DNA of 64,000 bases from a virus. Positions within the stretch are counted from its first letter, which is position 1; each line of letters begins with the position of its first letter. The stretch covers positions 91,896-155,895 of the IMG/VR virus record IMGVR_UViG_3300027917_000021. One strand, written 5' to 3'. This document shows, one piece after another, positions 3,778-20,321 of the stretch. A program made the translations under genes and the position numbers. Below the pieces are notes generated by a model. That model saw nothing but the letters and a program-made list of their open reading frames with translations, was not told the DNA's origin and did not search any database.

Positions 3778-5009
3778 AAGAATACATTCTGAATAATTTT
3801 CAATATCTTATAGAAAATAATCCGGATGGTATTGTAATACATTCAGATGGTATCATAAGATATGCAAATAAAAGTATTCTTACTATATTTGGTGCTTCAT
3901 CGGCTGATGAAATTATAGGTAGAAATATTTTTGATTTCATACAACCGGATTATCATGAAGCTGCAAAAATACGTATTGCCAAAGCACTAAACAATATGGA
4001 ACCCGCTCCACTAGCAGAATATGAAGCAATAAAATTAGATGGAGCAAAAATATATATAGAAATACTTTCAATACCTTTTATGAGAGGAGAAGCTAAGGCA
4101 TTACAAGTATTAGTTAAAGATATTTCTGAAAGAAAAAGACAATATAAAGCTTTACAATACTCTGAAGAAAAATTTCGTGCTTTATTTCAAACAGCGCCTG
4201 ACGCAATTTTATTGTCAAATAAAGAAACAAATATTATTTCTTTAAATTCTGCTTTGGAAGATATGTTTGGTTATACTTACGATGAATTAATTGGTAAATC
4301 ATGGATGTTGCTTGTTGCCAAAAGGTTGCGAAATGATCGAATGGAGCGTATAGAATATATAAGAGAAAAACTAAAAGCTGGTGAATTTCTTAAAGAAGAA
4401 GTATATGGAACAACTAAATTTGGCAAAGACATCCCTGTAGAAATAAAAGTTGGGCGATGGCAAATAAATGGTGAACCTTTTTATACTACCATTATAAGAG
4501 ACATATCGGAAAGAAGAGAGTTTGAAGCCAAATTAAAGCAATTAGCTGATATTGACCATCTAACTGGAATATATAATCGTCGTGCCGGTTTAATACTTAC
4601 AGAACAATTGTTAAAAACTTCTAGAAGAACTAACCAACCTATTACTTTATGTTATTTGGATCTCGATAATTTTAAATATGTAAACGATTCACATGGGCAT
4701 GTTGCAGGAGATAAAGTTTTAAATGCTGTAGCGAGTTTAATAAAAGATAATCTTCGTGAATCAGACATATTTTTTAGGCTTGGTGGTGATGAATTTATAA
4801 TTGTCTGGAACAATACATTTCTAGAACAGGGACATCAACAATGGTCCAGAATATTAAATAAATTTAATGAGTGGAATAAAGAAAATTATTCTACTCGATT
4901 GGGGATAAGTGCTGGATTTGTATGTCCAGATCTTAAGAAAGACATAAACATTGATCGTATTATAGATATTGCAGATAAGGAAATGTATAAATCCAAAGGA
5001 AACAAATAA
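3768..5009 (+). CDS. PAS-PAS-GGDEF diguanylate cyclase
   Basis: Two PAS/PAC repeats ending KDISERK and RDISERR; DHLTGIYNRR, DLDNFKYVNDSHGHVAGD, RxxD I-site (RESD) and intact RLGGDEF. Confidence 0.95.
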   Translation: MALKEYILNNFQYLIENNPDGIVIHSDGIIRYANKSILTIFGASSADEIIGRNIFDFIQPDYHEAAKIRIAKALNNMEPAPLAEYEAIKLDGAKIYIEILSIPFMRGEAKALQVLVKDISERKRQYKALQYSEEKFRALFQTAPDAILLSNKETNIISLNSALEDMFGYTYDELIGKSWMLLVAKRLRNDRMERIEYIREKLKAGEFLKEEVYGTTKFGKDIPVEIKVGRWQINGEPFYTTIIRDISERREFEAKLKQLADIDHLTGIYNRRAGLILTEQLLKTSRRTNQPITLCYLDLDNFKYVNDSHGHVAGDKVLNAVASLIKDNLRESDIFFRLGGDEFIIVWNNTFLEQGHQQWSRILNKFNEWNKENYSTRLGISAGFVCPDLKKDINIDRIIDIADKEMYKSKGNK

Positions 5010-6355
5010 TGGAGTATGCACCAGGAATACCTGATAAAAGCTCTAAATCAGTAATACCTTCTTCTCAAGACAAAATATGGTCATATGTAATTCAGTATCA
5101 TATGGCAGATGTTGCTGGGCCACACTATGATTTTAGAATATCTGATGGGGCAGTAGCATACTCTTGGGCAACGAGAGCAGGGTTGCCGAGCTTAGGAGAT
5201 AAGGTACTGTGGATACGACAGCCAGACCATACTCCAGAATATATGTCTTTTTCAGGAGAAATTGCCGATGGATATGGAAAAGGATCAGTTAAAGTCATTG
5301 ATTCAGGCCAGATCCATGTAATTAGTGCAACCCCGGAAAAAATATCATTTAATTTATATAAAGGTGCAGGAACGCAAAAATTTACTCTTGTTTATACAGG
5401 AGGAAATAATTGGTTATGCATGAACACAACGCCAACCAAAGAAACACGCCCAGAAATACCAGAGAAAAAAATACAAGCAAGATCTATTGATCCATCTAAA
5501 ATATCTTTTACAAATTCTAACCAAATTTTAACTGAAAAGATAGATGGGGCTGCCAGTTTATTTGTATTAAGAAAAGGACGACCAGTAGAAGTTTTTAGTT
5601 ATAGGAAAAGCAAGCGAGGTCCGGAACTTATAAATCGGACATATAAATATCCTGATTTATATAATACCATGGTGCCTGAAGAATTAGATAAAACTACTTT
5701 ATGGGGAGAGGCCTATGTTAGTGATGCTGAAGGACGAACACTTCCACACAGAGAAGGTACTGGCCTGCTCAATGCTAATGTGTGGAGAGCAAGAGATGAG
5801 GTAGCTAAAAGACACCTTAAATTCGACAATGTAATATTTAATATTGATAAATACAAAGGTGTGGATTACTCTAAAAAACCATATGGTGAAAAAATAGAGC
5901 TATTGAAAGAGATCCAAAGTAAGCTGCCTCAACTCAAGCTCCCTATTATGGCTGAAACTCCTTTAGAAAAAAGAAGATTATATGATGCTATAAAATCCGG
6001 GAAACACCCTCACACAACAGAAGGGTGGGTTATTTGGGATTTGAATTCAGACCGCCCAATTAAATCTAAATTAAAATTGGATACAGAATTATATGTACAG
6101 GGATATGAAGAAGGCAAAGGAAGATTAGAAGGAAAACTTGGAAAAATTTTGGCAACTCCCGATCCACAAGGAAAGGGCCCTATTACGAGAGTAGGTGGAG
6201 GATTTACAGATTTTGAGCGAGAACAAATCTGGAATAACCGGTTAACATATTTGGGAAAACCGATTACTATAGAATATCAAGAAAAATTACCGTCTGGTAA
6301 ATATAGAATGCCCATTTTTAAAGTATTTCGTACTGCAGAGTTTTGGCCTACCTAA
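5009..6355 (+). CDS. LigD-type 3'-phosphoesterase domain fused to ATP-dependent DNA ligase
   Basis: QYH..GPHYDFRI..SWA..DH..Y..F.GEI..GYGKG phosphoesterase motifs; ligase motif I EKIDG, EGWV and an OB-fold tail (GGGFTD..R, YRMP). Confidence 0.85.
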   Translation: MEYAPGIPDKSSKSVIPSSQDKIWSYVIQYHMADVAGPHYDFRISDGAVAYSWATRAGLPSLGDKVLWIRQPDHTPEYMSFSGEIADGYGKGSVKVIDSGQIHVISATPEKISFNLYKGAGTQKFTLVYTGGNNWLCMNTTPTKETRPEIPEKKIQARSIDPSKISFTNSNQILTEKIDGAASLFVLRKGRPVEVFSYRKSKRGPELINRTYKYPDLYNTMVPEELDKTTLWGEAYVSDAEGRTLPHREGTGLLNANVWRARDEVAKRHLKFDNVIFNIDKYKGVDYSKKPYGEKIELLKEIQSKLPQLKLPIMAETPLEKRRLYDAIKSGKHPHTTEGWVIWDLNSDRPIKSKLKLDTELYVQGYEEGKGRLEGKLGKILATPDPQGKGPITRVGGGFTDFEREQIWNNRLTYLGKPITIEYQEKLPSGKYRMPIFKVFRTAEFWPT

Positions 6356-6364
6356 TTAAGCAAC

Positions 6365-6393
6365 TTGCCTAAAGCCAATTTTTTGTGTATATT
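6365..6393 (+). promoter_or_regulatory. sigma70-type promoter TTGCCT-N17-TATATT
   Basis: Same spacing and -10 as four other copies in the window; ATG at 6401 follows. Confidence 0.6.
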
Positions 6394-6400
6394 TGTCTTG

Positions 6401-7264
6401 ATGAAAAAAATTTTAATAGTGCTAGGGCATAATCGCCTTACCGGAGTTAATACATGGGCATTTACTCTTGGTGATTTTTTAATAAGAAAAGGATATAGAG
6501 TTGACTTTGAGATAAAAAAAGATTTTGAATATGAACCTAAATTAGAGATAAGTATTCTAAATTCTTTAAATACTCTTAGAACAACTATATATGAAAAAAC
6601 TTTACCAGATTATAATTCATACGATCGTTGTATATTGAATTATAACGTACATCAAAAATTTATGTTACCAGAACAAATAATTTTTGTATCACATGGATCG
6701 ATGTTTGAACCATATACACCCTTTGGCAAGGTTTACGCGCATGTTGCTGTAAGTGAAAGGACAAAAAAAGCTACAAATGCTGATTTAGTTATACATAATG
6801 GTATTGATCTTAATAAATTTAGTATTAAAAGATTTCCAAGGACTCCTCCAACTAAGGCTTTAAACATTTTTCGTGGTATTCCTAATTATAGTATATATCG
6901 GGCGTGTACTAATTTGGGTATAGAATATAGACATGTTGGAGCAGCGTTAAATATTGAAACTGAAATAGTCCCTAATGACATAATTATTGGCTATGGAAGA
7001 TCTGCTTATGAGGGAATGGCTTCTGGTAAAGCAGTATTGGTACATGGCCCATTCGGAACTGATGGTTGGGTAAAACCTGAAAATTTTGAAAAGCTATTGT
7101 ATAGAAATTGTTCAGGTTGGACTGGAGCATACTTTCCAACTCTTCAAGAATTGATGGAACTTATCGATCAATATGATGCTGTAGACGGTAGACATAATAG
7201 GGCATTGGCAGAAAAATATTTATCTGCAGAAACAATGGCTAATAAGTTTGAAGAATTGTTTTGA
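6401..7264 (+). CDS. Glycosyltransferase (GT-B/GT4-like)
   Basis: GVNTW, HG, VAVSE, VIHNGIDLNKF, GRSAYEGMASGK motifs; start moved from TTG 6365 to ATG 6401 because the TTG lies in the promoter -35. Confidence 0.8.
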   Translation: MKKILIVLGHNRLTGVNTWAFTLGDFLIRKGYRVDFEIKKDFEYEPKLEISILNSLNTLRTTIYEKTLPDYNSYDRCILNYNVHQKFMLPEQIIFVSHGSMFEPYTPFGKVYAHVAVSERTKKATNADLVIHNGIDLNKFSIKRFPRTPPTKALNIFRGIPNYSIYRACTNLGIEYRHVGAALNIETEIVPNDIIIGYGRSAYEGMASGKAVLVHGPFGTDGWVKPENFEKLLYRNCSGWTGAYFPTLQELMELIDQYDAVDGRHNRALAEKYLSAETMANKFEELF

Positions 7265-7274
7265 TAATTAGTTG

Positions 7275-7303
7275 TTGACAATTTGAAGTAAAAGGTTTAT
7301 ATT
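7275..7303 (+). promoter_or_regulatory. sigma70-type promoter TTGACA-N17-TATATT
   Basis: Consensus -35, 17-nt spacer; ATG 7310 lies 7 nt after the -10. Confidence 0.75.
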
Positions 7304-7309
7304 TTCTAT

Positions 7310-7531
7310 ATGCTTAGGCCTGTAATATACCGCGCGACGGAAGGATCAAGTGGTGAAAAGATAGTAGAGATGATAGCACAGAAATTATCTAGACTATCAT
7401 ATAATCTACATTTTGATGCACAGGGAGATGTTGTAACAGTAATATCTATGCAAGCCCCAATGTCGATGTCTGACTATTTTACTAAACGGATGTCACAAAA
7501 GGAAATAAAAGAACTAATTAGGATGCTTTAA
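7310..7531 (+). CDS. Hypothetical protein
   Basis: 73-aa ORF after a promoter, coupled to the next gene. Confidence 0.55.
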   Translation: MLRPVIYRATEGSSGEKIVEMIAQKLSRLSYNLHFDAQGDVVTVISMQAPMSMSDYFTKRMSQKEIKELIRML

Positions 7532-8385
7532 TGGGATTTTCTATAGATGCGAAAAGAATATTTATTGGGTTTGCACAGAAATTATTTGCAGAGAATTATG
7601 CACTTACATGGACGTTAGATCCCAAAACTACTGGTATTTTAATAGGAGATAAGCATTTTATTGAAAGTCCTTTGATTGAAATGAAACCGGCTATAATTGT
7701 TAGCCGTGGCCCATTGAGATGGGGACAACATACAATAGACCAGAGAATGAGTTATAGTTTGGCAAACTTAGATAAAAAGTTTTCAGACATAATTTATGGG
7801 ACTATTGTATATAACGTTCTTTCACAGAATGAATTTATAACAGAGCGATTAGCAGATTATCTATTTACAAAATTAACTGGATATAGAGACCAATTTCGTA
7901 GAAATGGCATTAATAATATTATAAATATTGCCATGGGAGATACAGTACTTTTAAAAAACAATACAGAAGTAGAGTTTATAAACGTACCAATATCTGTTAA
8001 TTATGCGATGCAAAGAAATATTGACCTTGTGCATGATACTTTTTCTAGTATGTATATTACCTCAGAAGCACTAGACATAGAAAATGTTGATGGTGCTGAA
8101 CTGGGGGCCGGAATAACAGGAACATATGGAAAAGGTCTTTATATACAGGGTATCGATTATACAATAAGCGGTTCTGATATTCATTTTATAACTATTCCAA
8201 GTGGAGTAAAATTAACATTTGTATATACAGGAAGTACTACATTATCTACTTATTCTGAAGAAATTATTGTACCAACAAATAATCCACTACTCAGTTATGA
8301 TTTGATAGAACCGGTAGACTATATATATCCATTATACTCAGGAATCATTATCTATGACCAACTCTACTCAGGAATATCTAATTAG
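7531..8385 (+). CDS. Probable tail completion/terminator-like virion protein
   Basis: Position upstream of the sheath; PAIIVSRG motif; beta-rich C-terminal extension. Confidence 0.45.
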   Translation: MGFSIDAKRIFIGFAQKLFAENYALTWTLDPKTTGILIGDKHFIESPLIEMKPAIIVSRGPLRWGQHTIDQRMSYSLANLDKKFSDIIYGTIVYNVLSQNEFITERLADYLFTKLTGYRDQFRRNGINNIINIAMGDTVLLKNNTEVEFINVPISVNYAMQRNIDLVHDTFSSMYITSEALDIENVDGAELGAGITGTYGKGLYIQGIDYTISGSDIHFITIPSGVKLTFVYTGSTTLSTYSEEIIVPTNNPLLSYDLIEPVDYIYPLYSGIIIYDQLYSGISN

Positions 8386-9103
8386 AAGACAAGCTTTTAT
8401 AGACGAACTTGAAAAGTTAGGGGCTGTTGGCTTAATTGGTAGGTTGGTTACAGGACTAATGTCTCAAAGTCCTATAGCAAAAGAACTATTTGGAAAAGCA
8501 TCAAGATTTGCTACACAATATGCTACTAATCTTGGAAGAGAGGGATTTCGACAATCAGGAAAAGTTTTTCAAGAGGGGATGACAGCATTAAAAAGCACAA
8601 CTGGGAAATCAACAATTCGTCCCATGTTTGGAACCTCTAAACAGGTTATGGGCATTAGGGAGTCAAATAAAATTCCGTTTATGAAAGACCCTATCAGATC
8701 AATTGGTCAGTCGGTTCTGAGAGGCGCTGCTAATTTAGTTAATACAGGAAAAACTATTGCTAAGGAAGGCTTTGGAGCCTATTTGAAAAAAGATTTGGCT
8801 AGAACGCAGCTTTTTACTAAAACAATAACCGGTGAGGGTGGAAAAGCATTTGATGTGCTTGCTAAACGATCTGTAACCGGAAGACTGATAAATCCTGTAT
8901 TGGATACAGGAGTTGGTTTTGGAGGTTTAGCTTTAGCCACAAATAAATATGACGAAGCAGGACGTGCACGCAGTTTTGTATCTCGTATTGGTGGCGCAGC
9001 TAAAGAAAGTATTCTTTGGGGACCACTGAGACCATTGGCTATGGCTCATATGACGACCGTAGAATTACCAAAAATGACAAAAGATATAATTAAAGGCTTT
9101 TAA
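8354..9103 (+). CDS. Hypothetical basic, Gly-rich protein (possible internal virion protein)
   Basis: 249-aa ORF; AFIDELEKLG N-terminal motif. Confidence 0.5.
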   Translation: MTNSTQEYLIRRQAFIDELEKLGAVGLIGRLVTGLMSQSPIAKELFGKASRFATQYATNLGREGFRQSGKVFQEGMTALKSTTGKSTIRPMFGTSKQVMGIRESNKIPFMKDPIRSIGQSVLRGAANLVNTGKTIAKEGFGAYLKKDLARTQLFTKTITGEGGKAFDVLAKRSVTGRLINPVLDTGVGFGGLALATNKYDEAGRARSFVSRIGGAAKESILWGPLRPLAMAHMTTVELPKMTKDIIKGF

Positions 9104-9122
9104 CTATTAAGGAGTAATCTTT

Positions 9123-10733
9123 ATGGCTTACGTAAAACCAGGCGTCGAAGTTACTCAAACCCAAGTACGCGTTTCTCCAAGTTTGATATCTCCAGATTTA
9201 GGAACAGTTTTAGTTGGAAAGGCATTCTTTGTTGAAGAAGTAGGAGACTACTCTTATACTGATGTATATAGTGGTGTCCAAATTGATGTAGATTATGCCG
9301 GTCTTCCATCTGGAGCTGAAGTACATACAGCAAGTGTGTATGTTGATCTTATTGGTGGTACAGGAGCATCAGCTGGAACGAGAGTTCATTTAGAATCTGG
9401 AACAGATTTTACACCTGGAGCAACTTCTGTACAAATTAACGCAGGTTTGGGTTCAACATATCCGGAAGTTACTGGGCTAGAAAATGGCGCAGCAATTGAA
9501 ATTGGATATCGTGCACTTCGTACCGATTTAGATCCATTTTTAACCATGTCAACATTAACTGACATAGAAGAAAAAGTTGGATCCACAATATCTTATAATC
9601 CGCTGGGCGTGGCACTTCATAAAGCTATGTTAAATACTGCTGGATACGTCTTTGCGTCTCCTACACAGGAAGACACACCAGTGGAAACATCAAATGAATT
9701 TACATCTGCTGATGTAGCATTTGACACGTTGAAGACCAAAGAAATTTATGCAATGGTTCCTTTAACAACAACTGATGCCACAATAAGTGCATTTAAAACA
9801 CATGCAATAACATATTCTGAACCGGAAGAAAAAAGAGAAAGAATGGTTGTTGCAGCTCCAAGTATTCCTTGGAAAGACACTGGCGGCTCACCTACATCAG
9901 CTGACCTGGCAGATACAGCAGTGACTGCCGGTGCAATTAAAGAAGCTGCGTACAATCAACAAGAACGTAGACTTGTCTACGTATTTCCAGATACAATGTT
10001 TGTAACTGAAACACGACATGTGTCCACGTTGACGGATACTTATCGTGATGCAGTTCAGGGAGTAACCGGAATACCTTTTTATTTAGGGGAAAATAAAACT
10101 GTTACTGTTAGTGGCACAAAATATTCTTATAAAAAAGGCGATGTTTTGACATCGACAGTGTTATCAAATATAGCTACAGACAATACTTTTCTTATAGTGA
10201 ATTCTCCGGTTCCTGGATATATAGGTGCAGCTGCAATTGGTGGAATGATTTCTGGATATCCTCCTGAAACACCATTCACTAATTTAGCTATTACCGGTGT
10301 TAGTCGTTTGAAATATTCGATGGATAAATTTACTGAATCTGACCTTAACACAATGGCCGAAGGTGGTAATTATCTATTAATTCAAACATCTGAAACAGCA
10401 CCAATTTACTGTAGACATCAACTTACAACAGATATGACTTCTGTTGAAAGACGTGAATTAAGCATTCTAAAGACATTAGACTTTGTTGCAAAATTCATGC
10501 GTAACGGATTATCCGGATATATTGGACGTTATAATATTAGTCCACAGTTTATGAAGCTGCTTACCATGACTATACAAGCACAAATTCTGTATCTTGTTAA
10601 AAATGGCCATGTCAACGACATTAAAATTCTTAGTATTGCACAGGCCGAAGAAGCTGCTGATACAATAGAAGTAAGTCTAAATGTATTGGTCAAATATCCT
10701 GTCAATTACATTAAGATAGATCTACAGTTCTAA
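9123..10733 (+). CDS. Tail sheath protein
   Basis: MAYVKPGVEV start; C-terminal RHQLTT..RELSI..LDF and KYPVNYIKIDL sheath signatures; AGGAG RBS. Confidence 0.9.
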   Translation: MAYVKPGVEVTQTQVRVSPSLISPDLGTVLVGKAFFVEEVGDYSYTDVYSGVQIDVDYAGLPSGAEVHTASVYVDLIGGTGASAGTRVHLESGTDFTPGATSVQINAGLGSTYPEVTGLENGAAIEIGYRALRTDLDPFLTMSTLTDIEEKVGSTISYNPLGVALHKAMLNTAGYVFASPTQEDTPVETSNEFTSADVAFDTLKTKEIYAMVPLTTTDATISAFKTHAITYSEPEEKRERMVVAAPSIPWKDTGGSPTSADLADTAVTAGAIKEAAYNQQERRLVYVFPDTMFVTETRHVSTLTDTYRDAVQGVTGIPFYLGENKTVTVSGTKYSYKKGDVLTSTVLSNIATDNTFLIVNSPVPGYIGAAAIGGMISGYPPETPFTNLAITGVSRLKYSMDKFTESDLNTMAEGGNYLLIQTSETAPIYCRHQLTTDMTSVERRELSILKTLDFVAKFMRNGLSGYIGRYNISPQFMKLLTMTIQAQILYLVKNGHVNDIKILSIAQAEEAADTIEVSLNVLVKYPVNYIKIDLQF

Positions 10734-10744
10734 GGAGGAATTAG

Positions 10745-11374
10745 ATGGCCAAGACAACATACCAAGATTGGGAATTTAAAGAAGCACACGTAGAGCCAGA
10801 TGTATTAAATAATAATGAAAATTTTGTATCATCTGAATCCATAGTTATTTGTGCTGGTCCTTCCTACGTGGACGAAGGTACAGATTTAGCCGGTCAATTG
10901 TATCCTATAGGTATTCTTGAGAGTGCTGCAGTAGTGCAGAATAAACAAATTCAACAATTGTTTGAAATTGGTTCAAGAAAACCATACATGATTCCGGGAC
11001 GTACAAGAGTACAAGTAGGACTTAGTCGAGTAATATTTAATGGTGATTCACTATTAGCTGCTATGTACTATGGAAAGTATAGTGGAACCTTGCCAGAACA
11101 AGATGCAAGTGAAGATTCTCCTGGACATGCTAGCAATTATCCTGCGACAGGTGAAGGACACTTCTATTTAAATCTGGCTTCTAGTTTCTTTAATAAGCCA
11201 TTTGGATTAGCTCTAATAGTACACGATAGTGAGGATGAACAAACAGCAATGATATTACTTCAAAACTGCATGGTTCAATCTCATCAAATGAATGTTGGTG
11301 CAAATCAGACGATAGTAATGGAAAATGTTAATATTATCGCAGATAGTATCCAGCCAATTATTGTTAGTGCTTAA
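10745..11374 (+). CDS. Tail tube protein
   Basis: Directly after the sheath; QQLFEIGS..Y.IPGR motif; GGAGG RBS. Confidence 0.8.
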   Translation: MAKTTYQDWEFKEAHVEPDVLNNNENFVSSESIVICAGPSYVDEGTDLAGQLYPIGILESAAVVQNKQIQQLFEIGSRKPYMIPGRTRVQVGLSRVIFNGDSLLAAMYYGKYSGTLPEQDASEDSPGHASNYPATGEGHFYLNLASSFFNKPFGLALIVHDSEDEQTAMILLQNCMVQSHQMNVGANQTIVMENVNIIADSIQPIIVSA

Positions 11375-11393
11375 AAATTAATGTAAAAATATA

Positions 11394-11413
11394 GGGAGGA
11401 GCATTTCCTCCCT
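11394..11413. terminator. Hairpin between convergent genes (probable bidirectional terminator)
   Basis: GGGAGGA-gcatt-TCCTCCC with A/T-rich flanks. Confidence 0.7.
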
Positions 11414-11629
11414 TTATTTTGCATTTCCACTAATCGCTATTTCAGTCTCATCCAGGACTTTTTCTGTTTCTTGAAATATTTTTTCTATTTCTTCAAGACG
11501 CTTGTTAACCTTTTCTAGTCGTATTGTAAGAAGTTCCGAAATTGGATTTCCATCATCCTTTAAAGTTTTAATTCTTGATTCGAGATATTTTTTTTCCATT
11601 AGGCACATCTCTTTATTCGGACAAACCAT
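11414..11629 (-). CDS. Small coiled-coil hypothetical protein
   Basis: 71 aa with AGGAG RBS. Confidence 0.7.
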   Translation of the reverse strand: MVCPNKEMCLMEKKYLESRIKTLKDDGNPISELLTIRLEKVNKRLEEIEKIFQETEKVLDETEIAISGNAK

Positions 11630-11654
11630 AATTTTCTCCTTTTTTATTTATATT

Positions 11655-11666
11655 TTTCTTATACCA
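11655..11666 (-). promoter_or_regulatory. Repeated TGGTATAAGAAA promoter-like motif
   Basis: Identical 12-mer at 43741-43752; 11-mer at 27832-27842; each lies shortly upstream of a - strand gene. Confidence 0.55.
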
Positions 11667-11749
11667 GCTTAAGATAAAAAAAAGAGCTGTACTTTACATC
11701 CCCTTGTCTTCGGCAGTTAATTTTAATTTGAAGATGCTTATTTTTTCTA

Positions 11750-12392
11750 ATTTGTTAGTCGTTGCAACTAACGAAGTATTCTGTTTTATCTACAGCTCAC
11801 ATCGCAAGGCGGCACAGCTGGGAATATTTCCCAGCTGGTGCTTGCTATTTATCCGCCGGACTAGAGCGGTTACAAATAAACTCGGAGATTTATCTCCGAG
11901 TTTTTTGGAATGCGATTGCTCGGCGGATAAAATGAGATGTTCTGGCAAAACGAAACGTCATGCTCATCTCTTCTAGAAATATTTAACTAATACTCCTAGA
12001 AGAAACGAGCGGGGGACGCCACCCCGATGCATCTCATTTCTTCTGCTTCGACGACGATCGCGTCTCTCTCGGGCTCCAGCCGCCAGAAACCTGGATCCGG
12101 ATCCGAGCGTGCGCGCGACGGCCGCCTTGCATGGTCCCACTGGCCGGCGTACCCCAGGCGCCCTAGGCGCCCGCGGTCCTGAAGGGGGGTACCTTCACGT
12201 GGCAGCCCGTCGACTGGAATCAGGGCACAGTACTCTCGCGCATGCACTGCAGCAGGCCTTAGGCGCTGCAGCTGGCCGCACGTTGTCTCTGGTCGCCTGG
12301 TCGGGGACGGTTTTGTTGTAACGGAGACAGGGACGTCAGAGTTACAACAAATAGAGCCTTAAACGAAAGACGAGACGTCTCTCTAGGCTCAG
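11750..12392. other. Structured non-coding region: serial long inverted repeats followed by a GC-rich palindrome-dense island
   Basis: Stems CAGCTGGGAA/TTCCCAGCTG, AAACTCGGAGAT/ATCTCCGAGTTT, TTTATCCGCCG/CGGCGGATAAA, TTTGTTGTAAC/GTTACAACAAA; GC content about twice that of the flanks at 12005-12310. Confidence 0.65.
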
Positions 12393-12403
12393 GCAGGAGC
12401 AAG

Positions 12404-12598
12404 TTACTCCTTTGCGTCAATTGTTTCTTTCGAAACAGGCGTTTCTGCTTTTGCCGCCTGTCTTTTTAATTTACGTTGTTTGGCCTTTTCCATCTTCATT
12501 TCATAGCGAAATTTTTTTTGTTCTTTATTTTTTTCTCGACGATGTTCCAATTTGTATGCTTCGCACTTCTTTTTATTCCTGCCTTGTTTTTTGCCCAT
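12404..12598 (-). CDS. Small, highly basic protein
   Basis: 64 aa, K/R-rich; AGGAAAGG purine-rich RBS upstream. Confidence 0.7.
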   Translation of the reverse strand: MGKKQGRNKKKCEAYKLEHRREKNKEQKKFRYEMKMEKAKQRKLKRQAAKAETPVSKETIDAKE

Positions 12599-12620
12599 AA
12601 CACCTTTCCTAAAAATTAAA

Positions 12621-12844
12621 GAGGTCCGCTGAGGATTCTAACCTCTTGCACAAGATTAATTTTTCATCACTTATCCCCTGTACCGCGATGGATTTACACC
12701 AATGCACTCGGTGTAGGTGTCTGCGAGGCCTTGTTCGCTCCGAACGAAAAGGATGTGCTTTTTCAAGTAAGAGCTCTTATACCATCATTACGGAAGCTCC
12801 AAGGAAGTACTACGTCACGCGCCGGAAATACTTCCGCGGACCTC
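12621..12844 (-). ncRNA. Putative ~224-nt structured RNA with a tRNA-like T-arm/acceptor end
   Basis: 9-bp terminal stem GAGGUCCGC/GCGGACCUC; GAGG-UUAGAAU-CCUC arm next to the 3' strand; internal hairpins GGAAGUA/UACUUCC and UACACC/GGUGUA. Confidence 0.55.
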
Positions 12845-12873
12845 AAATTTTCTTAATTATGTTTGTTTGTCTT

Positions 12874-12998
12874 TAGAGGGACGAATAATAAATTCGCATC
12901 TCGCCGCTGCCGTATAACCTGCCTCTTTTTCACGGAAAAGGCTCCTAGCTTCAGGGCTTATGCCGACACGCGTTTTCAATTTGTTAAACTACCCTCCG
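12874..12998 (-). ncRNA. tRNA-like RNA with an elongated anticodon arm
   Basis: CGGAGGG-UA-GUUU..AAAC D arm; extended stem UGUCG/CGGCA, AUAA/UUAU, CCUG/CAGG; GCGAA-7nt-UUCGU arm; CCCUCUA acceptor strand. Confidence 0.5.
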
Positions 12999-13008
12999 CA
13001 GGTCAAGT

Positions 13009-13030
13009 ATACCGATAATTATATCGGTAT
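13009..13030. repeat. Inverted repeat right after the vWA gene stop
   Basis: ATACCGATA-atta-TATCGGTAT. Confidence 0.6.
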
Positions 13031-13696
13031 TTATTCTTCATCTTTTTTATTAATAATGATGTCTGGTGTATTCGGATCATAAAAATTATTAAGCTGTGTA
13101 ATTCCAGACCGCCTTGCGTCAAAATATTTTGCAAATCCTTCTGCAGTTGCCGCGTAGGCTTCAGCGCGTCCGGCATTAGAACTTGTATATGAAAATGTGT
13201 TATTTGTAACAAAGTTTAATTCTTGTTTATCTTCTAGTCCTTCAATTCCTTGAAATACAAATGTCCAATTTCCCTTTTCTTCCCTTTCCAAAATCATGTT
13301 ATTGATTTCGTCTCGAGAAAATATAGATGAGCTGTTTTCCCATCCGTCTGTAAATATATAAACTAATGCGGCATCATCATCTTTAATAACACCATCAATT
13401 AATTTTATTGCCTGACCAATGCCATCATACATAGGAATAGATCCAGATGGAACGTAGTTTTGATGATCGAGGTGTTTTGCTACCCTAGCATCCTCATTAA
13501 AATAAACTACTTCGCCCTCTCTATTACGAAATAATACTAGAGATACTTTTACTTTTCCAGCGAGTCTTGCCTTTTCAGCTCGCATTAAGTCAATTATTTC
13601 ATTTACTCCGGTGATTGTTGTTTCGATGTCGGCGCTCATGGAGCCACTTCCATCCAAAACTAAAGCGATATAAGTATCGCCTGCCACTTTTGCCAT
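13031..13696 (-). CDS. Stand-alone von Willebrand factor A (vWA) domain protein
   Basis: MIDAS motif LVLDGSGSM, PMYDGIG, IFTDGWEN; AGGAG RBS. Confidence 0.9.
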   Translation of the reverse strand: MAKVAGDTYIALVLDGSGSMSADIETTITGVNEIIDLMRAEKARLAGKVKVSLVLFRNREGEVVYFNEDARVAKHLDHQNYVPSGSIPMYDGIGQAIKLIDGVIKDDDAALVYIFTDGWENSSSIFSRDEINNMILEREEKGNWTFVFQGIEGLEDKQELNFVTNNTFSYTSSNAGRAEAYAATAEGFAKYFDARRSGITQLNNFYDPNTPDIIINKKDEE

Positions 13697-13712
13697 TAAA
13701 TTCTCCTTTTAT

Positions 13713-13751
13713 AAAAAAGCGCGACTGCCCTACCCTGGGTATGCCGCGCTT
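13713..13751 (-). terminator. Probable intrinsic terminator closing the 13.75-14.35 kb RNA region
   Basis: AAGCGCG...CGCGCUU stem followed by a U tract on the - strand. Confidence 0.6.
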
Positions 13752-13775
13752 ATAATGTATTCTTCAAAAATACAA

Positions 13776-14211
13776 TGTGTTAGATTGTTCTATCCAAAGA
13801 ATGACTGCTTATGCCCTATAATGTAATTTCATCAACTTATTTTTTTAATCTGAAACGTCCACGTCCTACCTCTGGACTACCGCGCCATATAAGGATTTGG
13901 ATGTCACTGTCCTTTACAAACTGTCAACTATGTTTGTCGCGCGAATCCTGGCTACGCGAGTTTTGTAATGAAACCAACATGAAGGTTTTCGCACAGAGCA
14001 AACCTACAAATACTGACTACTGTCTCGTCGTAGCCACCGTTATCATGTAAGAGTGATAACCTCCTCTCATTGCGTAGAGATCCCGGTTTTTGTTAAAGGT
14101 GGTATTCTCCATCTTGTGACTTGAGGCGCGGAAGGGAATCGAACCCCTGCTTTGGAGGAATATAAAATAAGCGATTACTTTCGGGCGTGTGGCAGTATAA
14201 ATCTGGACACA
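13776..14211 (-). ncRNA. Large RNA folded as a circularly permuted tRNA mimic (Y-RNA-like topology)
   Basis: T arm plus 3' acceptor strand (14148-14124) come before the 5' acceptor strand plus D arm (13886-13863); perfect 7-bp GGCGCGG/CCGCGCC; seven nested flank pairings; structured 237-nt insert. Confidence 0.75.
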
Positions 14212-14314
14212 ATAAGCTAAGTTTGAATCGAATTACACTCCGTTCTCCCAATAGAGGGCCATTGCTACAATTATGTAACAATGGCGATTAGGATACTGGT
14301 AAGATACGATGTAT

Positions 14315-14338
14315 GAGTCTAAGTCTTAGCGTGAGTCT
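14315..14338 (-). repeat. Hexamer-register AGACU(U/C) repeats
   Basis: + strand GAGTCT AAGTCT TAGCGT GAGTCT; the 11-mer AGTCTAAGTCT recurs at 15137-15147. Confidence 0.6.
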
Positions 14339-14346
14339 AGTGTCGT

Positions 14347-15114
14347 TTATACTGATAAACCACCATGTAAAATATTACCTGTTATTATTTTACCAAGTTT
14401 TTCGTCTTCAACGATCTTGGCATTATTGGCTCTTTGGCGAGCATCTTTAACCGCCAATTCCCATTTATCATGACGAGAAAGAATTTCTGATTTCATTTTA
14501 GGGGTAATGGCTCCAGATACTTTTGTCTCATTCCAAGTGCCGACTACCATATCTTCATGTACTAATTCGGTTTGTGCCGGGTGTTCTTTTGTTGCCTCAT
14601 ATTTTACTAGAACTTTCGGAACTTTTTTGGATTTGAATGTTTGGAGTGGATCGGTTTTGTAATAATTATTGTCCTTGTCCCATTTCCAATTAAACTTTGG
14701 GTCTAAGGTTGGAATTGACATCAACAATGATCTTAATTGTTTTAATTTGTTTTCCAAGCTTAGTAAAGACGTTGCATGTAAATTTTCTGCAATAGTATAT
14801 CCTTCATAAACCAAATTAGCAGTTGCCACTGCATTGGTTTCTTCTTTCACTATCGAATGATTGATAGCATCTGACAGAGCATCAAAATAATATGATATTT
14901 TTTCTTGCACAGTTGTTACCAAAGGCTCTGTCTCAGGAGGAAATTGTTCTCCACCCTCTTCTTTGGGCTGGTATACACGAAATCTGCCAGCGAAATGATG
15001 CTGTTTTTTGCCTAGCGTATTTTCTGCCTCTTTAGCCAAATTTCTTTCTTTTTCTTTAACATTTGGCTCTGCAGCAAGGTGCTGGTGTAGCTGAGTTTTA
15101 CTTTCTTCTGCCAT
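14347..15114 (-). CDS. Uncharacterised 255-aa protein (helical/coiled-coil with a beta-hairpin region)
   Basis: Long ORF with AAGGA RBS; function not assignable from motifs. Confidence 0.85.
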   Translation of the reverse strand: MAEESKTQLHQHLAAEPNVKEKERNLAKEAENTLGKKQHHFAGRFRVYQPKEEGGEQFPPETEPLVTTVQEKISYYFDALSDAINHSIVKEETNAVATANLVYEGYTIAENLHATSLLSLENKLKQLRSLLMSIPTLDPKFNWKWDKDNNYYKTDPLQTFKSKKVPKVLVKYEATKEHPAQTELVHEDMVVGTWNETKVSGAITPKMKSEILSRHDKWELAVKDARQRANNAKIVEDEKLGKIITGNILHGGLSV

Positions 15115-15253
15115 AGAAATATTCCTTTAGTTAATTAGTCTAAGTCTAAATATTAAAAAGAAAAATGACAGGGCTCTCCGACGGGCCCAACATTTTTCTT
15201 AATTTGTATTTTCTCCAGGATTACTGCGGTTTGGGTTCTTTTTCCCGGACTTG

Positions 15254-15407
15254 CCTGTGTGCCTAGGGGGCCGATGACCGAGTGCGTACTCAGCGAGCTG
15301 GCCGCAGCAAGGGGCCTACAGCAAGGAAGGTGCCCTTCTTTGCTGGAGGGACCGAAGACGCGGCTTGCGAGGAGGACGTGCCGGTCGAAGGCTATGTAGC
15401 ACACAGG
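15254..15407. ncRNA. Putative 154-nt GC-rich structured element
   Basis: Terminal stem CCTGTGTGC/GCACACAGG; internal CAGCAAGGAAGG/CCTTCTTTGCTG, GACCG/CGGTC and GAGT/ACTC hairpins. Confidence 0.55.
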
Positions 15408-15444
15408 AATATCAATAATGTTGCGAAACACAACAAATAGATAT

Positions 15445-15819
15445 TTATGAATTTTTTGCCTTTTTTCGTCTTTTACGTCGCTTACGCTTTGTCGGAGATT
15501 TTGAAGTAGAAGGCTTGGAATTCTTTTTTCTTATTCCAGGATTTTTTAAAAGCTTGCAATCCTTTGCTAATAAGGTTCTTAATCTTTGGTCATTGTCAAT
15601 ACATTCAACACAAAGTTGTTGTTTTTCATCAATATAAATATTTTTAATAGTTAATTTATAGCGACTTCCTTCATAACAATTAATAATTTTTTGTCCGATT
15701 AAGTTCTCATCTTTTTTTGTGATTAATTGTGATTTGGGCACCAACTTCATTTGAAATTGTGGTTTTCTAAGAATTATTGTCCATTCCTTTTCTGTAATAC
15801 TTTTTTTACGTTTGACCAT
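15445..15819 (-). CDS. Hypothetical protein with a very basic C-terminal tail
   Basis: 124 aa ending KRKRRKRRKKAKNS. Confidence 0.6.
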   Translation of the reverse strand: MVKRKKSITEKEWTIILRKPQFQMKLVPKSQLITKKDENLIGQKIINCYEGSRYKLTIKNIYIDEKQQLCVECIDNDQRLRTLLAKDCKLLKNPGIRKKNSKPSTSKSPTKRKRRKRRKKAKNS

Positions 15820-16376
15820 GAATGTGCTTCATAATCTGGTTTAGGGTCATAATCATAAATTTCCATAAGGCCAGCATGATTATACCAAATTGATGTTAAA
15901 TCAGGCCAATCTTGTTTTACTGAAGAAACATTTTTTGGTTTATCATCAATAAAAGCCACGGGATTTTCATACTCTCCAACTATCCTTGATTTATCCCTAT
16001 GTGATTTTGCAAACCTCAAATCGGCTTTTAAATCGTCAAGAATACCAAGATTATTTAGGTTTTTTACCCTTTTTTCTCTGTATGCTTCTGGCACTGTAGT
16101 ATTATATATTATTTTGAAGCGTTTGGATGACCATTCTAAAAATTGTTTGGCTCCTTTTATAAATGAAAGATTTTCAAATAAATCCGATTCCCAAGTTTTT
16201 ACTACAAGTTTATATACCTGTCTGCGACTATATCCTCTTGATTTTAAAAGATCCCATTGCTTAAAGTCATCTTCGTTTAGATCTATATTTTCGTTTTCTT
16301 TTAGTATGACGGCATAGGCTTTATCAAAAGAAAGAATACACCCGTCTACATCTAGAATGATAGGCCTTTTTTGCAT
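15774..16376 (-). CDS. HAD-family 5'(3')-deoxyribonucleotidase-like phosphatase
   Basis: LDVDG motif I; FIDDKPKN motif IV. Confidence 0.8.
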   Translation of the reverse strand: MQKRPIILDVDGCILSFDKAYAVILKENENIDLNEDDFKQWDLLKSRGYSRRQVYKLVVKTWESDLFENLSFIKGAKQFLEWSSKRFKIIYNTTVPEAYREKRVKNLNNLGILDDLKADLRFAKSHRDKSRIVGEYENPVAFIDDKPKNVSSVKQDWPDLTSIWYNHAGLMEIYDYDPKPDYEAHSWSNVKKVLQKRNGQ

Positions 16377-17029
16377 AGAAACTCCTTTATGTCATTTAAC
16401 ATTTCCTGAGGAGGTTGATTAGAGTCTACAATGCATTCAGTTGGGACCCGAATACTGTCTATTTCCTTCTCTGAAGGATGCTCTAAAACGGATTTATCAA
16501 ATTCTCCATATAACTTTTTTATTCGTGCTTCTTGGGTTTCTTTTGATATAAACAAAAATATAGATTGCCAATTATTTCTATCAAACCATTCAAATTCATT
16601 TTTAAATCTGCAATCATCTATTATCCATACTGTATTTGGATCCTTTTTAGATTTGGCATCTGCTATTTTTATCCATATTTGATCATCTATCCTTTTTCTA
16701 GCGCCATCTGTACCAAGAAACTGTAATCGTTTGCGAGGTTTAGGTTTTTCATGTGGAATAAAACGAGTTTCAAAAATAATTTTATGCCACGCAGTATAAA
16801 ATTCTTCAGGAATATCTAACCCTAATTTTGTTTGTATTTCGTCCCTGGGATCGTAATATGGAAGAATATATTTATTGATAAGGCTTTTCCAGTCTTCGTC
16901 AATATTGTTAACCAGGTCATAAACTGGTCCGGCCAATCTTAATATTTTACTATTAGGTATTTCCTTAACAAGTAGGTTAGCGGCCGTTGTTTTACCACTT
17001 GTCATTTTACCTACGATTAATATGTTCAC
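16352..17029 (-). CDS. Deoxynucleoside monophosphate kinase
   Basis: GKMTSGKTT P-loop, RKRLQFLGTD, IIDDCRFKNE, HPSE. Confidence 0.85.
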   Translation of the reverse strand: MNILIVGKMTSGKTTAANLLVKEIPNSKILRLAGPVYDLVNNIDEDWKSLINKYILPYYDPRDEIQTKLGLDIPEEFYTAWHKIIFETRFIPHEKPKPRKRLQFLGTDGARKRIDDQIWIKIADAKSKKDPNTVWIIDDCRFKNEFEWFDRNNWQSIFLFISKETQEARIKKLYGEFDKSVLEHPSEKEIDSIRVPTECIVDSNQPPQEMLNDIKEFLCKKGLSF

Positions 17030-17041
17030 AATGTTTTCTGG

Positions 17042-17551
17042 TTATTTTTTCCAATGGTCTGCTACGTAAGCATCTACTTTCACTGGCGTATGTTTTATCC
17101 ATAATTGTGCAGCATCAACCATAAGTTTACTTAACATATTTTTTGCATCTTCTGCAATATTTTCTCTGGCTTCCAATAAAATTTCATCATGGATAGTACT
17201 AATGATTTTACAGTCATTGTCCCAACCACGCGCGATAATTTCATATTTAACCAGAGTTAATGCTTTCTTTGTAATACTGGCATTGCCGCTTTGCAAAGAC
17301 ATATTCTTTGCAATATTTGCTGCGTGTGCTCGTTGTTTTGGAAGTCTAAGATTAAAACCTTTAAGCCACCTTAGTCGGTTATCCATATAACATCTTACAC
17401 ATTCACTTTCTAAAGCTTCTGCAGCTCTAGCATCGAGGAATTCCCTTACTTTTGGAAATGCATGCCAGAACTTGGACAATAGCCTTTGGGCTTCATCGTA
17501 TTCAACTTCTAATTGGTTTGCTAGCCTTGTAGGACCAAGGCCATAAGCTAC
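17042..17551 (-). CDS. polA: DNA polymerase family A, exon 2
   Basis: VAYG completes motif B after exon 1 KNINFG; N..LQS and motif C TIHDEI. Confidence 0.9.
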   Translation of the reverse strand, partial: VAYGLGPTRLANQLEVEYDEAQRLLSKFWHAFPKVREFLDARAAEALESECVRCYMDNRLRWLKGFNLRLPKQRAHAANIAKNMSLQSGNASITKKALTLVKYEIIARGWDNDCKIISTIHDEILLEARENIAEDAKNMLSKLMVDAAQLWIKHTPVKVDAYVADHWKK

Positions 17552-18085
17552 CAGGTACCCCAATGTTTCCAATGGGCCTGGACTATCCCTTTATGTATCT
17601 ACCCGTAATTGGGTTGCGTGTGCAATGATGCTTTTGGTGACAACTTTTACACAATATTTCTAGATTTGATAGATCATTATTTGTTCTGTCTTTGTCTATA
17701 TGATGTGTTAATAAGTTATTCACTGAATCACAACGATTGCATTTTTTATCGTAGTGATCAAAAGCTCGTTTACTAAAATTTCTAATTCCATTTTTATACA
17801 TATGGTTTGTGGTGCCAAATTGATTACCACCACTACCAACACCAGGCTTAGATATAAATCCATGTTTCACTCTCCAATTGTAAGAGTGAAATGCTGATGA
17901 GCATTTTGTAGAACAAAATTTTCGTTTTCTTTTTGGCAATTCATTGCCACAACGCATACATACCGCTCGTCTAGCCTCTACACTTTCTCTTGCCAAAGAG
18001 CTTAGCTCGGGATTGCCATCACCATTATGTGTTAAGGTTTCCCCGAATTTGGGCGGTTTTATTTCGGCATAATTAGTTTTCATCT
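17552..18085 (-). mobile_element. Group I self-splicing intron in polA (534 nt)
   Basis: Exon 1 ends in U pairing UUCGGU/GCCGAA (P1 U.G); P AAAUUCGGGGAAACC, Q AAUCCCGAGC, R GUAGAGGCUAGA, S AAGGGAUAGUCC; terminal G; splicing restores KNINFG-VAYG. Confidence 0.9.
17583..18083 (-). CDS. Intron-encoded HNH homing endonuclease
   Basis: CxxC...FCSxxC zinc finger; CNRC..HHIDKDRTNNDLSNLEILCKSCHQKHH. Confidence 0.85.
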   Translation of the reverse strand: MKTNYAEIKPPKFGETLTHNGDGNPELSSLARESVEARRAVCMRCGNELPKRKRKFCSTKCSSAFHSYNWRVKHGFISKPGVGSGGNQFGTTNHMYKNGIRNFSKRAFDHYDKKCNRCDSVNNLLTHHIDKDRTNNDLSNLEILCKSCHQKHHCTRNPITGRYIKG

Positions 18086-19411
18086 ACCGAAGTTAATATT
18101 TTTTCCGATTGGTCTTAGATCAGCATTGACATCTTCAGTTGCTACTTTAACAATTCCTTTATCTAAATACTTATCGCCTTTACGGATAACAAGTTTATCT
18201 TGAATCATTGTAGCAACGTGTCCATGTGCATCCAGTCCCAAATCAAATATCTTTTTGAATTCTGGGTCTTCTGAGAATTCCGCAAGTAATACTAATTCCA
18301 TGCCAGCGTAGTCGGCACCTACAATTTTCCATCCTTTTTCTGCAGTGAATGCCGCACGATAATTAGTATCACGTGGAATATTTTGTGCATTTGGCTCGCG
18401 ACTAGAGTAACGACCGGAGTCAGTGCCACCTACTTGTACAAATGTAGGATGTATTCTTCCGGTTTTTGGATGTACGTGTTCTTTATAAAAACCTGTGCCG
18501 TACGTTGTTACGCGTTTTTCATATTCCCGATATTTAAGTAATGCCCTTACAGCAGGATGTACAATACGTTCAAGGACCTCTTTGCCAGTCCCAGGAATAC
18601 TATGCCCAAGAATTTGTTCTAATAATGGTTTTAATTGTACATGAGAATTATAATTTACAATTGGATCTCCAAATAAATCCTTTTCACAATGTTGCAAAAA
18701 ATGTTTATCCAATTCCTGTTTTTTAAGCAAACTTTCTTTTTTGGCAGTTGCTTCTAATGCACTCCATTTTGCAAAATCAAGATGCAGGCCATTAAGTTCC
18801 ATATCACCGGTGACAGAAATTACCTCACATTCTAAATTATATACAGAGTCTAATTTCAAATCAACAATATCAAGGACAAGTACTTTGTGTAATTTATGTA
18901 AATAGGCCACATCATCGGCTGCATATTTTATTTGCTCGTCTGTAAAAGGGCCTTTGTGGTTTTCAAATGTTTGTCTAACTGATTTTGACAAATCAGCTAA
19001 ATTATAATCATGAGTTAAATCATCTAATCCGAAACCTTTCTTTTGTAGTCCGGCCCGAATTAATTGTGCAGCGATCATTGTATCTTTTAGATAAAGAAGT
19101 TCTATTCCAAGAGACTGCTTTATCATTTTATAATCAAATTTTGCATTATGCAGAATAAAAACTTGTTGTGGATGTTCCATAACAGTTTTAAATTCTGATA
19201 ATAATTCAGGAAATGTTCCTAATGTTTTTTGTACGTCTATAACCGCCTGGTTGCCTTGTTCAGTGCCAAGCTGTATTAATAATAATTTCGAAGTGAATGG
19301 GTCTAGTCCGGTAGTCTCTGTGTCAAGAGCTAGTGGGGCATTATCCAAACGTCTAATTGCTTCCAGCAAATCAGTGAAAGCATCCTTGGTGTCTATAAAT
19401 AAAACGCTCAT
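18086..19411 (-). CDS. polA: DNA polymerase family A, exon 1 (3'-5' exonuclease plus polymerase motif A)
   Basis: LDTETTGL, HNAKFD, YAADD; SGRYSSREPNAQNIPR; ADYAGMEL; R..GKNINFG. Confidence 0.92.
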
Positions 19412-19432
19412 TTATTTTTGGTTGGTTTGGTT

Positions 19433-19585
19433 ATGTTTGATTGTGGAGGATTAACAAAAGAAAATGTACAAATATTATGTAAATCTTGTAATAGTTTAAA
19501 AGGAATAAATTGTGAAGATTATAGAATATTATTCCATATTACAAATATTTGTCTAATAAATTACGAGCACGTGGATTACGTCTAA
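19433..19585 (+). pseudogene. HNH endonuclease C-terminal remnant (not in the ORF track)
   Basis: Translates MFDCGGLTKENVQILCKSCNSLKG..., the second half of an HNH motif without the upstream DH. Confidence 0.6.
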
Positions 19586-20321
19586 TTTTTTTGAGGGATT
19601 TTTTCTTTATTTGTCTGATCCTTTCTCGCGTTAAACCAAGAATGTTTCCTATCTCTTCCAAAGTAAAAGGTCTAAATTCATCCACACCGTGATAATATTT
19701 TAAAATTTCTATTTCCCTATCGTTTAAATTGTCTAATATTGTTTCTAAATCTATCCTTAAAGATTCTGCTTCGAACCTGTTGTCCGGCGGCAATGCATCT
19801 TTATTTGGAAATAATTCAATCATTGGCTGATCGGTCGAAGTTTCAGAATCAAGTCTTACTGGAAATGCTGAATACATTTCAAGAATTTCATGATCAACCT
19901 CGTACTCAGAGGGAGACAAGTCTCCCTTTTCTTGCATATCTTGTTCCATCAATTTTCGTGTTTTCTGTATCTCATTAATTTTATTAATTGGAATTCGCAC
20001 CACACGAGTATTTTCGGAAAGAGCTTGGAGAATACTTTGTCGTATCCACCATACGGCATATGTTATAAACTTCATGCCTTTTTCTGGATCAAATCTTTCT
20101 GCTGCTTTGCATATTCCATAATTGCCTTCAGCTATTAATTCTTCCAATGGCAGGCCTTGACCTTGATATCCTTTTGCCACATCTATTACATACCGAAGAT
20201 TTCTTATAATTAATTCATCCTTTGCACGTTTATTTCCACGTACTGCTTTTCGTGCTATTTTTCGCTCTTCTTCGGCTGTAAAAAGCTCTGTTTTTCCGAC
20301 GTCTTTTAAATATTTGTCCAC
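19539..20321 (-). CDS. RNA polymerase sigma70-family factor (RpoD/RpoS-like, no region 1.1)
   Basis: NLRYVIDVAK, DPEKGMKFITYAVWWIRQSI, TLEEIG..LTRERIRQIK. Confidence 0.95.
   Translation of the reverse strand: MDKYLKDVGKTELFTAEEERKIARKAVRGNKRAKDELIIRNLRYVIDVAKGYQGQGLPLEELIAEGNYGICKAAERFDPEKGMKFITYAVWWIRQSILQALSENTRVVRIPINKINEIQKTRKLMEQDMQEKGDLSPSEYEVDHEILEMYSAFPVRLDSETSTDQPMIELFPNKDALPPDNRFEAESLRIDLETILDNLNDREIEILKYYHGVDEFRPFTLEEIGNILGLTRERIRQIKKKSLKKIRRNPRARNLLDKYL

Follow-up and report, generated by a model that had tools for sequence, protein, structure and literature searches.

The locus described here lies in the genome of an uncultured phage, apparently from marine sediment, for which the source record has 155,895 bp and 35.5% GC. 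The window, the stretch of 64,000 nucleotides that we analysed, is the final 64 kb of this genome. Here the tail sheath (9123-10733) and tube (10745-11374) genes are followed by a gap of ~1.6 kb, on the other side of which a vWA protein and a DUF7873 protein are encoded on the minus strand. Within this gap there is a non-coding, GC-rich stretch of ~260 bases packed with palindromes, which we call the island and which sits at the junction of convergent structural and replication modules (Table 1). The gene for a 71-aa protein on one side of it is also one end of an accessory block of ~5 kb that extends to a 200-aa gene and is found in this phage lineage only. The block is located between the tail-tube gene and the dNMP-kinase/DNA-polymerase genes, and where the tube identity of a relative is 35-43%, its tube gene lies immediately next to the dNMP kinase and DNA polymerase genes. 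Comparison of the cassette proteins with PADLOC, NCBIfam, and PDB sequences gave nothing informative, and searches of the genome for C5 and N6/N4 methyltransferases, reverse transcriptase, and ThyA/ThyX found none.

We noted several other things in the neighborhood of the cassette. The family A DNA polymerase (17042-19411, minus strand) is encoded in the window by ORFs of 443 aa and 176 aa, which are split by an ORF of 166 aa (17583-18083) with no family match, while in L053, L054, L056, and L063 among the relatives the polymerase is a single 612-aa product. The sequence of the split gene suggests a mobile insertion, such as a free-standing homing-endonuclease-like gene. Overlapping the start of the dNMP kinase gene there is a minus-strand ORF (15774-17029) with a weak likeness to 5'-deoxynucleotidases (NT5C, E 0.005). 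The pairing of a 5'-deoxynucleotidase with a dNMP kinase occurs in phages that alter nucleotide pools; a search of the genome for a thymidylate-synthase-like hydroxymethylase was negative. At the 3' end of the vWA gene, 50 nt that include a terminator-like hairpin (13001-13050, with the hairpin at 13009-13030) are 94% identical to unannotated DNA in the Klebsiella jumbo phages Muenster, KP13-7, and RCIP0023, which are otherwise unrelated to this phage, and this was the sole match when positions 5000-20000 were searched by blastn.

Table 1. Features of the island, its flanks, and the two adjoining small genes, in window coordinates
Feature	Position	Strand	Remarks
71-aa predicted coiled-coil protein gene	11414..11629	-	downstream of the element; ends the accessory cassette
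Terminator-like hairpin (inverted repeat I6)	11875..11906	.	T-run on plus strand, T-rich tail on minus strand
Third small left-flank hairpin	11944..11962	-	conserved; alignment-column pairs 94-112
Long hairpin, ~21 bp	11963..12009	-	conserved; G·U pairs invariant only as minus strand
Hairpin, 5-bp stem, loop GACGYCA (plus-strand spelling)	12010..12026	-	conserved; adjoins core
GC-rich hypervariable core with palindrome array	12048..12310	.	69% GC; 21 perfect hexamers, 18 types
Hairpin, stem TTTGTTGTAAC/GTTACAACAAA, loop GGGAYGTCA	12311..12351	-	conserved; right border of core
Hairpin with GAGACGTCTC inside	12354..12390	-	conserved
Hairpin over stop codon of 64-aa basic protein gene	12392..12414	-	conserved; 9-bp stem covaries among relatives
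64-aa lysine/arginine-rich protein gene	12404..12598	-	directly upstream (RNA sense); no family match; relatives keep it

From the alignment of related loci it is well supported that the island forms the variable central part of a structured non-coding RNA, which is conserved and predicted to be read from the minus strand from ~12414 to ~11875. In the sense of this RNA, the order is the 64-aa gene (12598-12404), three hairpins (~12414-12311), the core (12310-12048), three more hairpins (12026-11944), the terminator-like hairpin (11906-11875), and the 71-aa gene, with the terminator-like hairpin likely forming the 3' limit of the transcript. When ten sequences of the left flank are aligned, the consensus structure has 34 pairs, 15 of which show compensatory double changes, and the stem of the hairpin next to the core is found as CGGGG/CCCCG, CAGAG/CTCTG, and TAGGG/CCCTA. 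G·U pairs at two positions are invariant, in 9-10 of the 10 sequences, only when the left flank is read as the minus strand, and the alifold energy is -31.6 kcal/mol for the minus strand vs -13.0 for the plus strand. Covariation together with strand-specific G·U pairs, the general mark of a structured non-coding RNA, is found in the flanks only. Full-length elements fold on the minus strand with z of -4.5 to -8.4, while the cores alone are no more stable than shuffled sequences in three of four lineages (z of +1.3 to -2). Rfam covariance models run with cmscan gave no matches over the window at gathering thresholds and only chance-level matches at E<=10 over 11600-13100, and ARAGORN found no tRNA in the window. 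A sigma-70-like site on the plus strand (11905-11933) was considered and discarded, as it is not conserved in L002.

Two further observations concern these hairpins and words. The loop of the right-flank hairpin (12313-12352 in the window, 7563-7604 in L002) reads ACAGGGAYGT on the plus strand and resembles the SELEX consensus for CsrA binding, RUACARGGAUGU; given that covariation favors the minus strand as the RNA, the resemblance is probably a coincidence. A second GC island (15160-15441, 58% GC), found after a gene stop on the minus strand, has the words ACAACAAATAGA and AGCTGGCCGCA in common with the first, and ACAACAAATAGA also closes it, at 15430-15441. It has 2 palindromes (z of -0.8) and is probably another structured RNA of the cassette.

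A scripted recount of positions 12027-12274 gave 22 six-base palindromes, 19 of them different, in exact agreement with a preliminary description of this DNA that had been made from the letters alone, and the other sites reported there, namely GACGTC at 12332 and within GAGACGTCTC (12372-12381) and a CCTNAGG site (CCTTAGG), were found as well. Dinucleotide-preserving shuffles of the same positions contain 5.5±2.3 sites, so the rough estimate of ~6 by chance was right, and the excess survives this control, since the highest count in 5000 shuffles was 16 and none attained 22. The number of distinct types is likewise far above the shuffles (19 vs 5.0±2.0). In sliding counts over the whole 155.9-kb genome, as proposed in the same description, these positions rank first in palindromes (22, with 15 for the runner-up) and first in GC content (0.70, with 0.58 for the runner-up and 0.355 for the genome). 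Each of the 19 words has 4-68 copies genome-wide, counting the copy in the island, which is about the expected frequency, and outside the island their genome frequencies have z between -1.4 and +2.6, i.e., there is no avoidance. The preliminary description had added that phages usually avoid such sites, which does not apply here: six-base palindromes are not generally avoided by this genome.

Relatives were found by searches with the tube and vWA proteins, and the syntenic loci come from many independent assemblies (JGI, ENA, NCBI, and Logan) of samples that are apparently marine sediment. Ten distinct cores were available for comparison: those of the window, L017, L002, L019, L053, L055, L057, L058, and L064, and a short one in L061. 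The flanks of the ten versions align at ~80%, while the cores are largely unalignable, and perfect hexamer palindromes are in excess in every one of the ten (z of 2.6 to 8.3). The cores together contain 135 palindromes vs 42.4 expected (z of 14); against Markov nulls fitted to the cores themselves, the expectation is 46 for order 2 (z of 12) and 74 for order 3 (z of 6). Across the ten islands 36 different hexamer types are in use. Palindrome density is thus preserved at this position even as the sequence and the identity of the sites vary, the outcome that the preliminary description had asked to be looked for in related phages, and because the relatives keep their palindromes as the sequence changes, we conclude that selection maintains the property. 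Two controls from the same material, the second GC island (15160-15405) and a LamG fragment, showed no enrichment.

The hypervariable core contains short tandem duplications and indels. In L017, the flanks and the right half of the island are nearly base-for-base identical to the window, while ~90 nt of the left half of the core have diverged, and L054 differs from L055 by a deletion of ~37 aligned columns adjoining the core. We also looked at a 'relocation' of the lost words GGTACC and GCATGC between the window and L017, which is suggestive but statistically inseparable from shared ancestry, and made no use of it. L065, the most distant relative that bears the vWA gene, has a basic protein and is without the island.

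The list of sites looks like a laboratory multiple cloning site, and an artefact could take the form of a vector polylinker, a chimeric assembly, or an unrecognised protein-coding gene. By blastn the island has no match among 72,556 plasmids and 50,697 phage records, so it is not a known vector, one of the ways in which the preliminary description said its reading could fail. It is single-copy, with one match in the whole genome, and viral contigs scanned with the flank motifs yielded the known relative only, besides chance matches. A cloning site or a misassembly is also at odds with ten distinct natural versions in independent metagenome assemblies from four sources, with flanks and synteny kept, and with the near-exact right half of the island in L017, which is from a different sample. 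A conserved coding frame, another way in which that description could have failed, is ruled out: the core of L017, whose tube protein is 99% identical, has indels of 1, 7, and 9 nt that break every reading frame, the other cores are largely unalignable, and the two longest ORFs of the island (51 aa and 83 aa) have no PHROG or Pfam match. What can be said for an artefact, apart from the look of the list, is that one relative contig, L018, is probably a chimera, in which a GC-rich fragment of a LamG-like gene takes over inside the island. Altogether, the artefactual reading is effectively refuted, and we give it almost no weight.

The L018 contig itself deserves a comment. The switch to the high-GC LamG/laminin-G-like fragment (L018 3191-3659) falls inside the island, and comparison with L063 and L064 also places the junction there. 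We considered the GC-rich tail of the contig as a longer version of the island and rejected this, since the tail is the LamG-like gene fragment, attached where the two have a short stretch in common; L018 is most likely a chimeric metagenome contig joined at a short GC-rich overlap.

The signal in the cores is narrowly defined. Only uninterrupted 3+3 palindromes are in excess, and inverted trimers with spacers of 1, 3, or 5 nt are at chance. In the pooled ten cores there are 110 palindromes with a maximal arm of 2 (120.6 expected), 101 with a maximal arm of 3 (31.8 expected), and 22 with a maximal arm of 4 (8.0 expected); hexamers extend to octamers with a probability of 0.25, just as expected by chance, which makes the hexamer the selected unit. 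Hexamers that miss a palindrome by one change show no enrichment on either strand (pooled counts of 77 vs 69 for the G·T type, 54 vs 46 for the A·C type, and 203 vs 244 for transversions), which leaves neither a pool of decaying sites nor any tolerance of G·U on either strand. A plus-strand G·U signal that was apparent in four islands was gone with ten and was dropped. Enrichment peaks for words with four G/C (4.5x) and is lower for all-GC words (2.2x). Words are rarely repeated within an island, with 8 duplicates vs 29±4 expected from composition-weighted draws, and the sites are placed at random along the core, with no helical periodicity. Where pairs of cores can be aligned, palindromic hexamers are retained in place in 32% of cases vs 18% for other core hexamers (odds ratio 2.1). 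These observations speak for selection that acts on each perfect hexamer and on how diverse the hexamers are, and against a mutational by-product. We regard it as confirmed that the island is a real feature, native and non-coding, which is inherited as a property and is under selection. As for mechanism, a DNA-level target array is the best-supported reading, and self-pairing of the RNA is its main rival.

Several explanations other than a target array on DNA have to be weighed against this signal. The palindromes could be a neutral by-product of local mutation or repair in a dispensable hypervariable spacer, arising through template switching at quasi-palindromes or through repeated break and rejoin, and in favor of this are the hypervariability of the core, its short tandem duplications and indels, and its position where transcription converges. 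Such a process, however, predicts palindromes of varied lengths and spacers, decaying one-offs, and repeated words, whereas we see an excess of hexamers only, with spacer forms at chance, one-offs not enriched, duplicates depleted, and sites conserved above background, all of which makes a by-product improbable. Equally improbable in our estimation is a binding array for a dimeric nucleic-acid-binding protein of the phage, such as the 64-aa basic or the 71-aa coiled-coil protein, a protein that would favor GC-rich DNA with dyad symmetry and be only loosely specific for sequence. The two small genes lie on either side of the element and are kept along with it in all close relatives, and the motif GGGAYGYCA is common to hairpin loops on both sides, but the islands use 36 hexamer types, and we know of no single protein that reads such a diversity. 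The lack of periodicity in site spacing, and L065, which has a basic protein and lacks the island, also speak against such an array.

The other alternative operates on the RNA, where unique self-complementary hexamers would serve as homotypic contacts through which copies of the RNA dimerise, multimerise, or condense. Multimerisation of an RNA had been one of three options in the preliminary description, and part of it stands: the element is a minus-strand RNA by its strong covariation. A unique palindrome would pair between copies and not within its own molecule, which fits the non-redundancy of the words, and there is precedent in large ornate RNAs of phages and bacteria. ROOL, GOLLD, and OLE have symmetric intermolecular kissing loops, the kissing loops of OLE and GOLLD switch between different palindromes, and the ROOL linker is poorly conserved (Kretsch et al. 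2025, PMC12286853). Because of this precedent we keep RNA self-pairing as the main rival. The tests that bear on the rest of the option were unsupportive. Neither strand shows an enrichment of self-complementary hexamers with G·U pairs, there is no preference for longer or all-GC words, which would be the better pairers, and there is no Rfam match. Closing stems, which display in loops would require, are no commoner around palindromes than around other hexamers, the palindromes are no more unpaired than the rest of the core by partition function, and the homodimer gain from cofolding is the same as for shuffled cores, though these three results are predictions on GC-rich RNA, and in-silico folding of RNA with 69% GC is unreliable. 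Taken together, we think it unlikely that RNA self-pairing accounts for the array.

We tentatively favor, as a possible reading, a bait or target pad, where selection maintains an array of type IIP-like words that are recognised in duplex DNA. The words would be read on the duplex by two-fold-symmetric sequence-specific proteins, rather than as RNA structure. The signal fits such a reader in that the dyads are perfect Watson-Crick palindromes of exactly six bases, extension is neutral, and diversity is maximised; in form the sites are what a type IIP target array would contain, namely uninterrupted perfect dyad hexamers with an arm of 3 and a spacer of 0 only, and no wobble. We also count for DNA that the core folds like its shuffles and that its palindromes are neither more unpaired, nor framed by stems, nor favorable to dimers. 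To our knowledge, the type IIP restriction and modification enzymes are the sole broad class of readers of dyad-symmetric hexamers. We infer the type IIP-like identity of the readers and the effects of cutting or binding, and likewise every step past the reading of duplex hexamers. A pad with many specificities would guarantee at least one hexamer target for whichever type IIP-like enzyme the host has, and it would be placed where it does no harm, in a dispensable transcribed spacer where two convergent gene modules meet. Cleavage, enzyme binding, or methylation there might truncate or change the transcript, or might open an entry point for recombination and repair. Cutting and repair at the pad would account for the patchy hypervariability, and the mosaicism that we see, in the ~90-nt patch between the window and L017 and the deletion between L054 and L055, fits a recombination-prone spot.

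Several results count against the DNA reading. As the island words are at ordinary frequency elsewhere, a cognate nuclease would cut the genome elsewhere too. Many type II sites are interrupted palindromes, and type II-like interrupted palindromes of 5 and 7 bp are not enriched in the cores. The genome encodes no C5 or N6/N4 methyltransferase of its own, and the flanks are clearly RNA structure, which raises the prior for a role at the RNA level. For a bait in particular, no convincing fitness benefit can be stated. One option of the preliminary description, a deliberate cut or sensor site, stays a candidate, though not as a unique cut site, since no island word is unique to the island.

The same description had put forward a decoy or sponge for host restriction enzymes, and on this the behavior of one word family is informative. 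WGCGCW (AGCGCT, TGCGCA, AGCGCA, and TGCGCT), the sole family for which avoidance by the phage is clear, has 0 copies in the 155.9 kb, while its sister words have 6-20 copies, e.g., 20 for GGCGCT and 12 for AGCGCC. The palindromic members AGCGCT and TGCGCA, which were the only two counted there, also have 0 copies in 83 kb of relatives. From the sequence, this absence looks like classic avoidance of one host restriction specificity. None of the ten cores contains WGCGCW; depletion inside the cores was considered as a separate signal and set aside, since 0 vs 1.8 expected is too few to count. Given that WGCGCW is avoided and is missing from the island, it appears that at least one restriction activity has access to the phage DNA, and the pattern suggests that none of the island words does harm in the present host. 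A protective sponge that shields the genome is unlikely, because the island words are at normal frequency elsewhere (not avoided, each with its 4-68 copies), the avoided WGCGCW is not in the island, and the array is single-copy, all of which weakens the decoy option.

Beyond the target array as such, it is possible, if doubtful, that the island represents a new class of phage DNA element, a selected natural 'polylinker' in the form of a non-coding catalogue of unique type IIP words. Such an element, at a fixed genomic junction, would engage the hexamer-specific enzyme of the host as a bait, a sensor, or a recombination entry. The textbook rule for phages is that short palindromes are avoided, being read by restriction enzymes. 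This phage lineage does the opposite at one spot, where dense, diverse, and non-redundant palindromes are kept through sequence turnover. This points to a reader or a use of dyad words, which may be host restriction-modification enzymes that are exploited, a new protein, or a new kind of RNA self-association. The signature, consisting of hexamer-only excess, perfect pairing, word uniqueness, and conservation above background, can be searched for across viral metagenomes.

Our literature search found no report of a locally maintained, diverse, non-redundant array of hexamer palindromes, and P1 pac, REP/BIME elements, and mitochondrial GC clusters have one trait each in common with the island and fail on others. 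The pac site of phage P1 has clustered TGATCA hexamers, one word seven times, and Dam methylation controls its cleavage. Like the island, it is a non-coding phage site of clustered palindromic hexamers, and those of P1 are read as duplex in a methylation-sensitive manner. However, P1 pac repeats one word and depends on Dam, whereas the island words are nearly all different and GATC is not special among them, and the island adjoins tail genes, not terminase. REP/BIME elements and mitochondrial GC clusters are multi-copy, dispersed hairpin units with loops. They resemble the island as GC-rich palindromic non-coding DNA in spacers of convergent genes, in an AT-rich genome, and variable between strains. 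In contrast to them, the island is a single locus of spacer-free hexamers, with hairpin-type repeats at chance, and its one match in the genome is not what a REP/BIME family or a mobile GC cluster would give.

With ROOL, GOLLD, and OLE, the element has in common that it is a large, structured non-coding RNA encoded by a phage, with a poorly conserved internal stretch. Those RNAs have few, conserved loop palindromes of 4-6 nt, whereas the present core, which cannot be aligned, has 8-25 words spread throughout it that are not presented in loops and bring no predicted dimer gain, and covariance models place the element in none of these families or any other of Rfam. A further comparison is with type IIP restriction-modification sites, which belong to the same class of words as those of the island, uninterrupted perfect 6-bp palindromes, and of which one family, WGCGCW with its 0 copies, also shows classic avoidance in this genome. 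The published pattern in phages is that type II sites are depleted (Rusinov et al. 2018, PMC6286503). While the literature on type IIP sites is thus one of depletion, the array described here, known from sequence alone, is local, positively maintained, diverse, and non-redundant.
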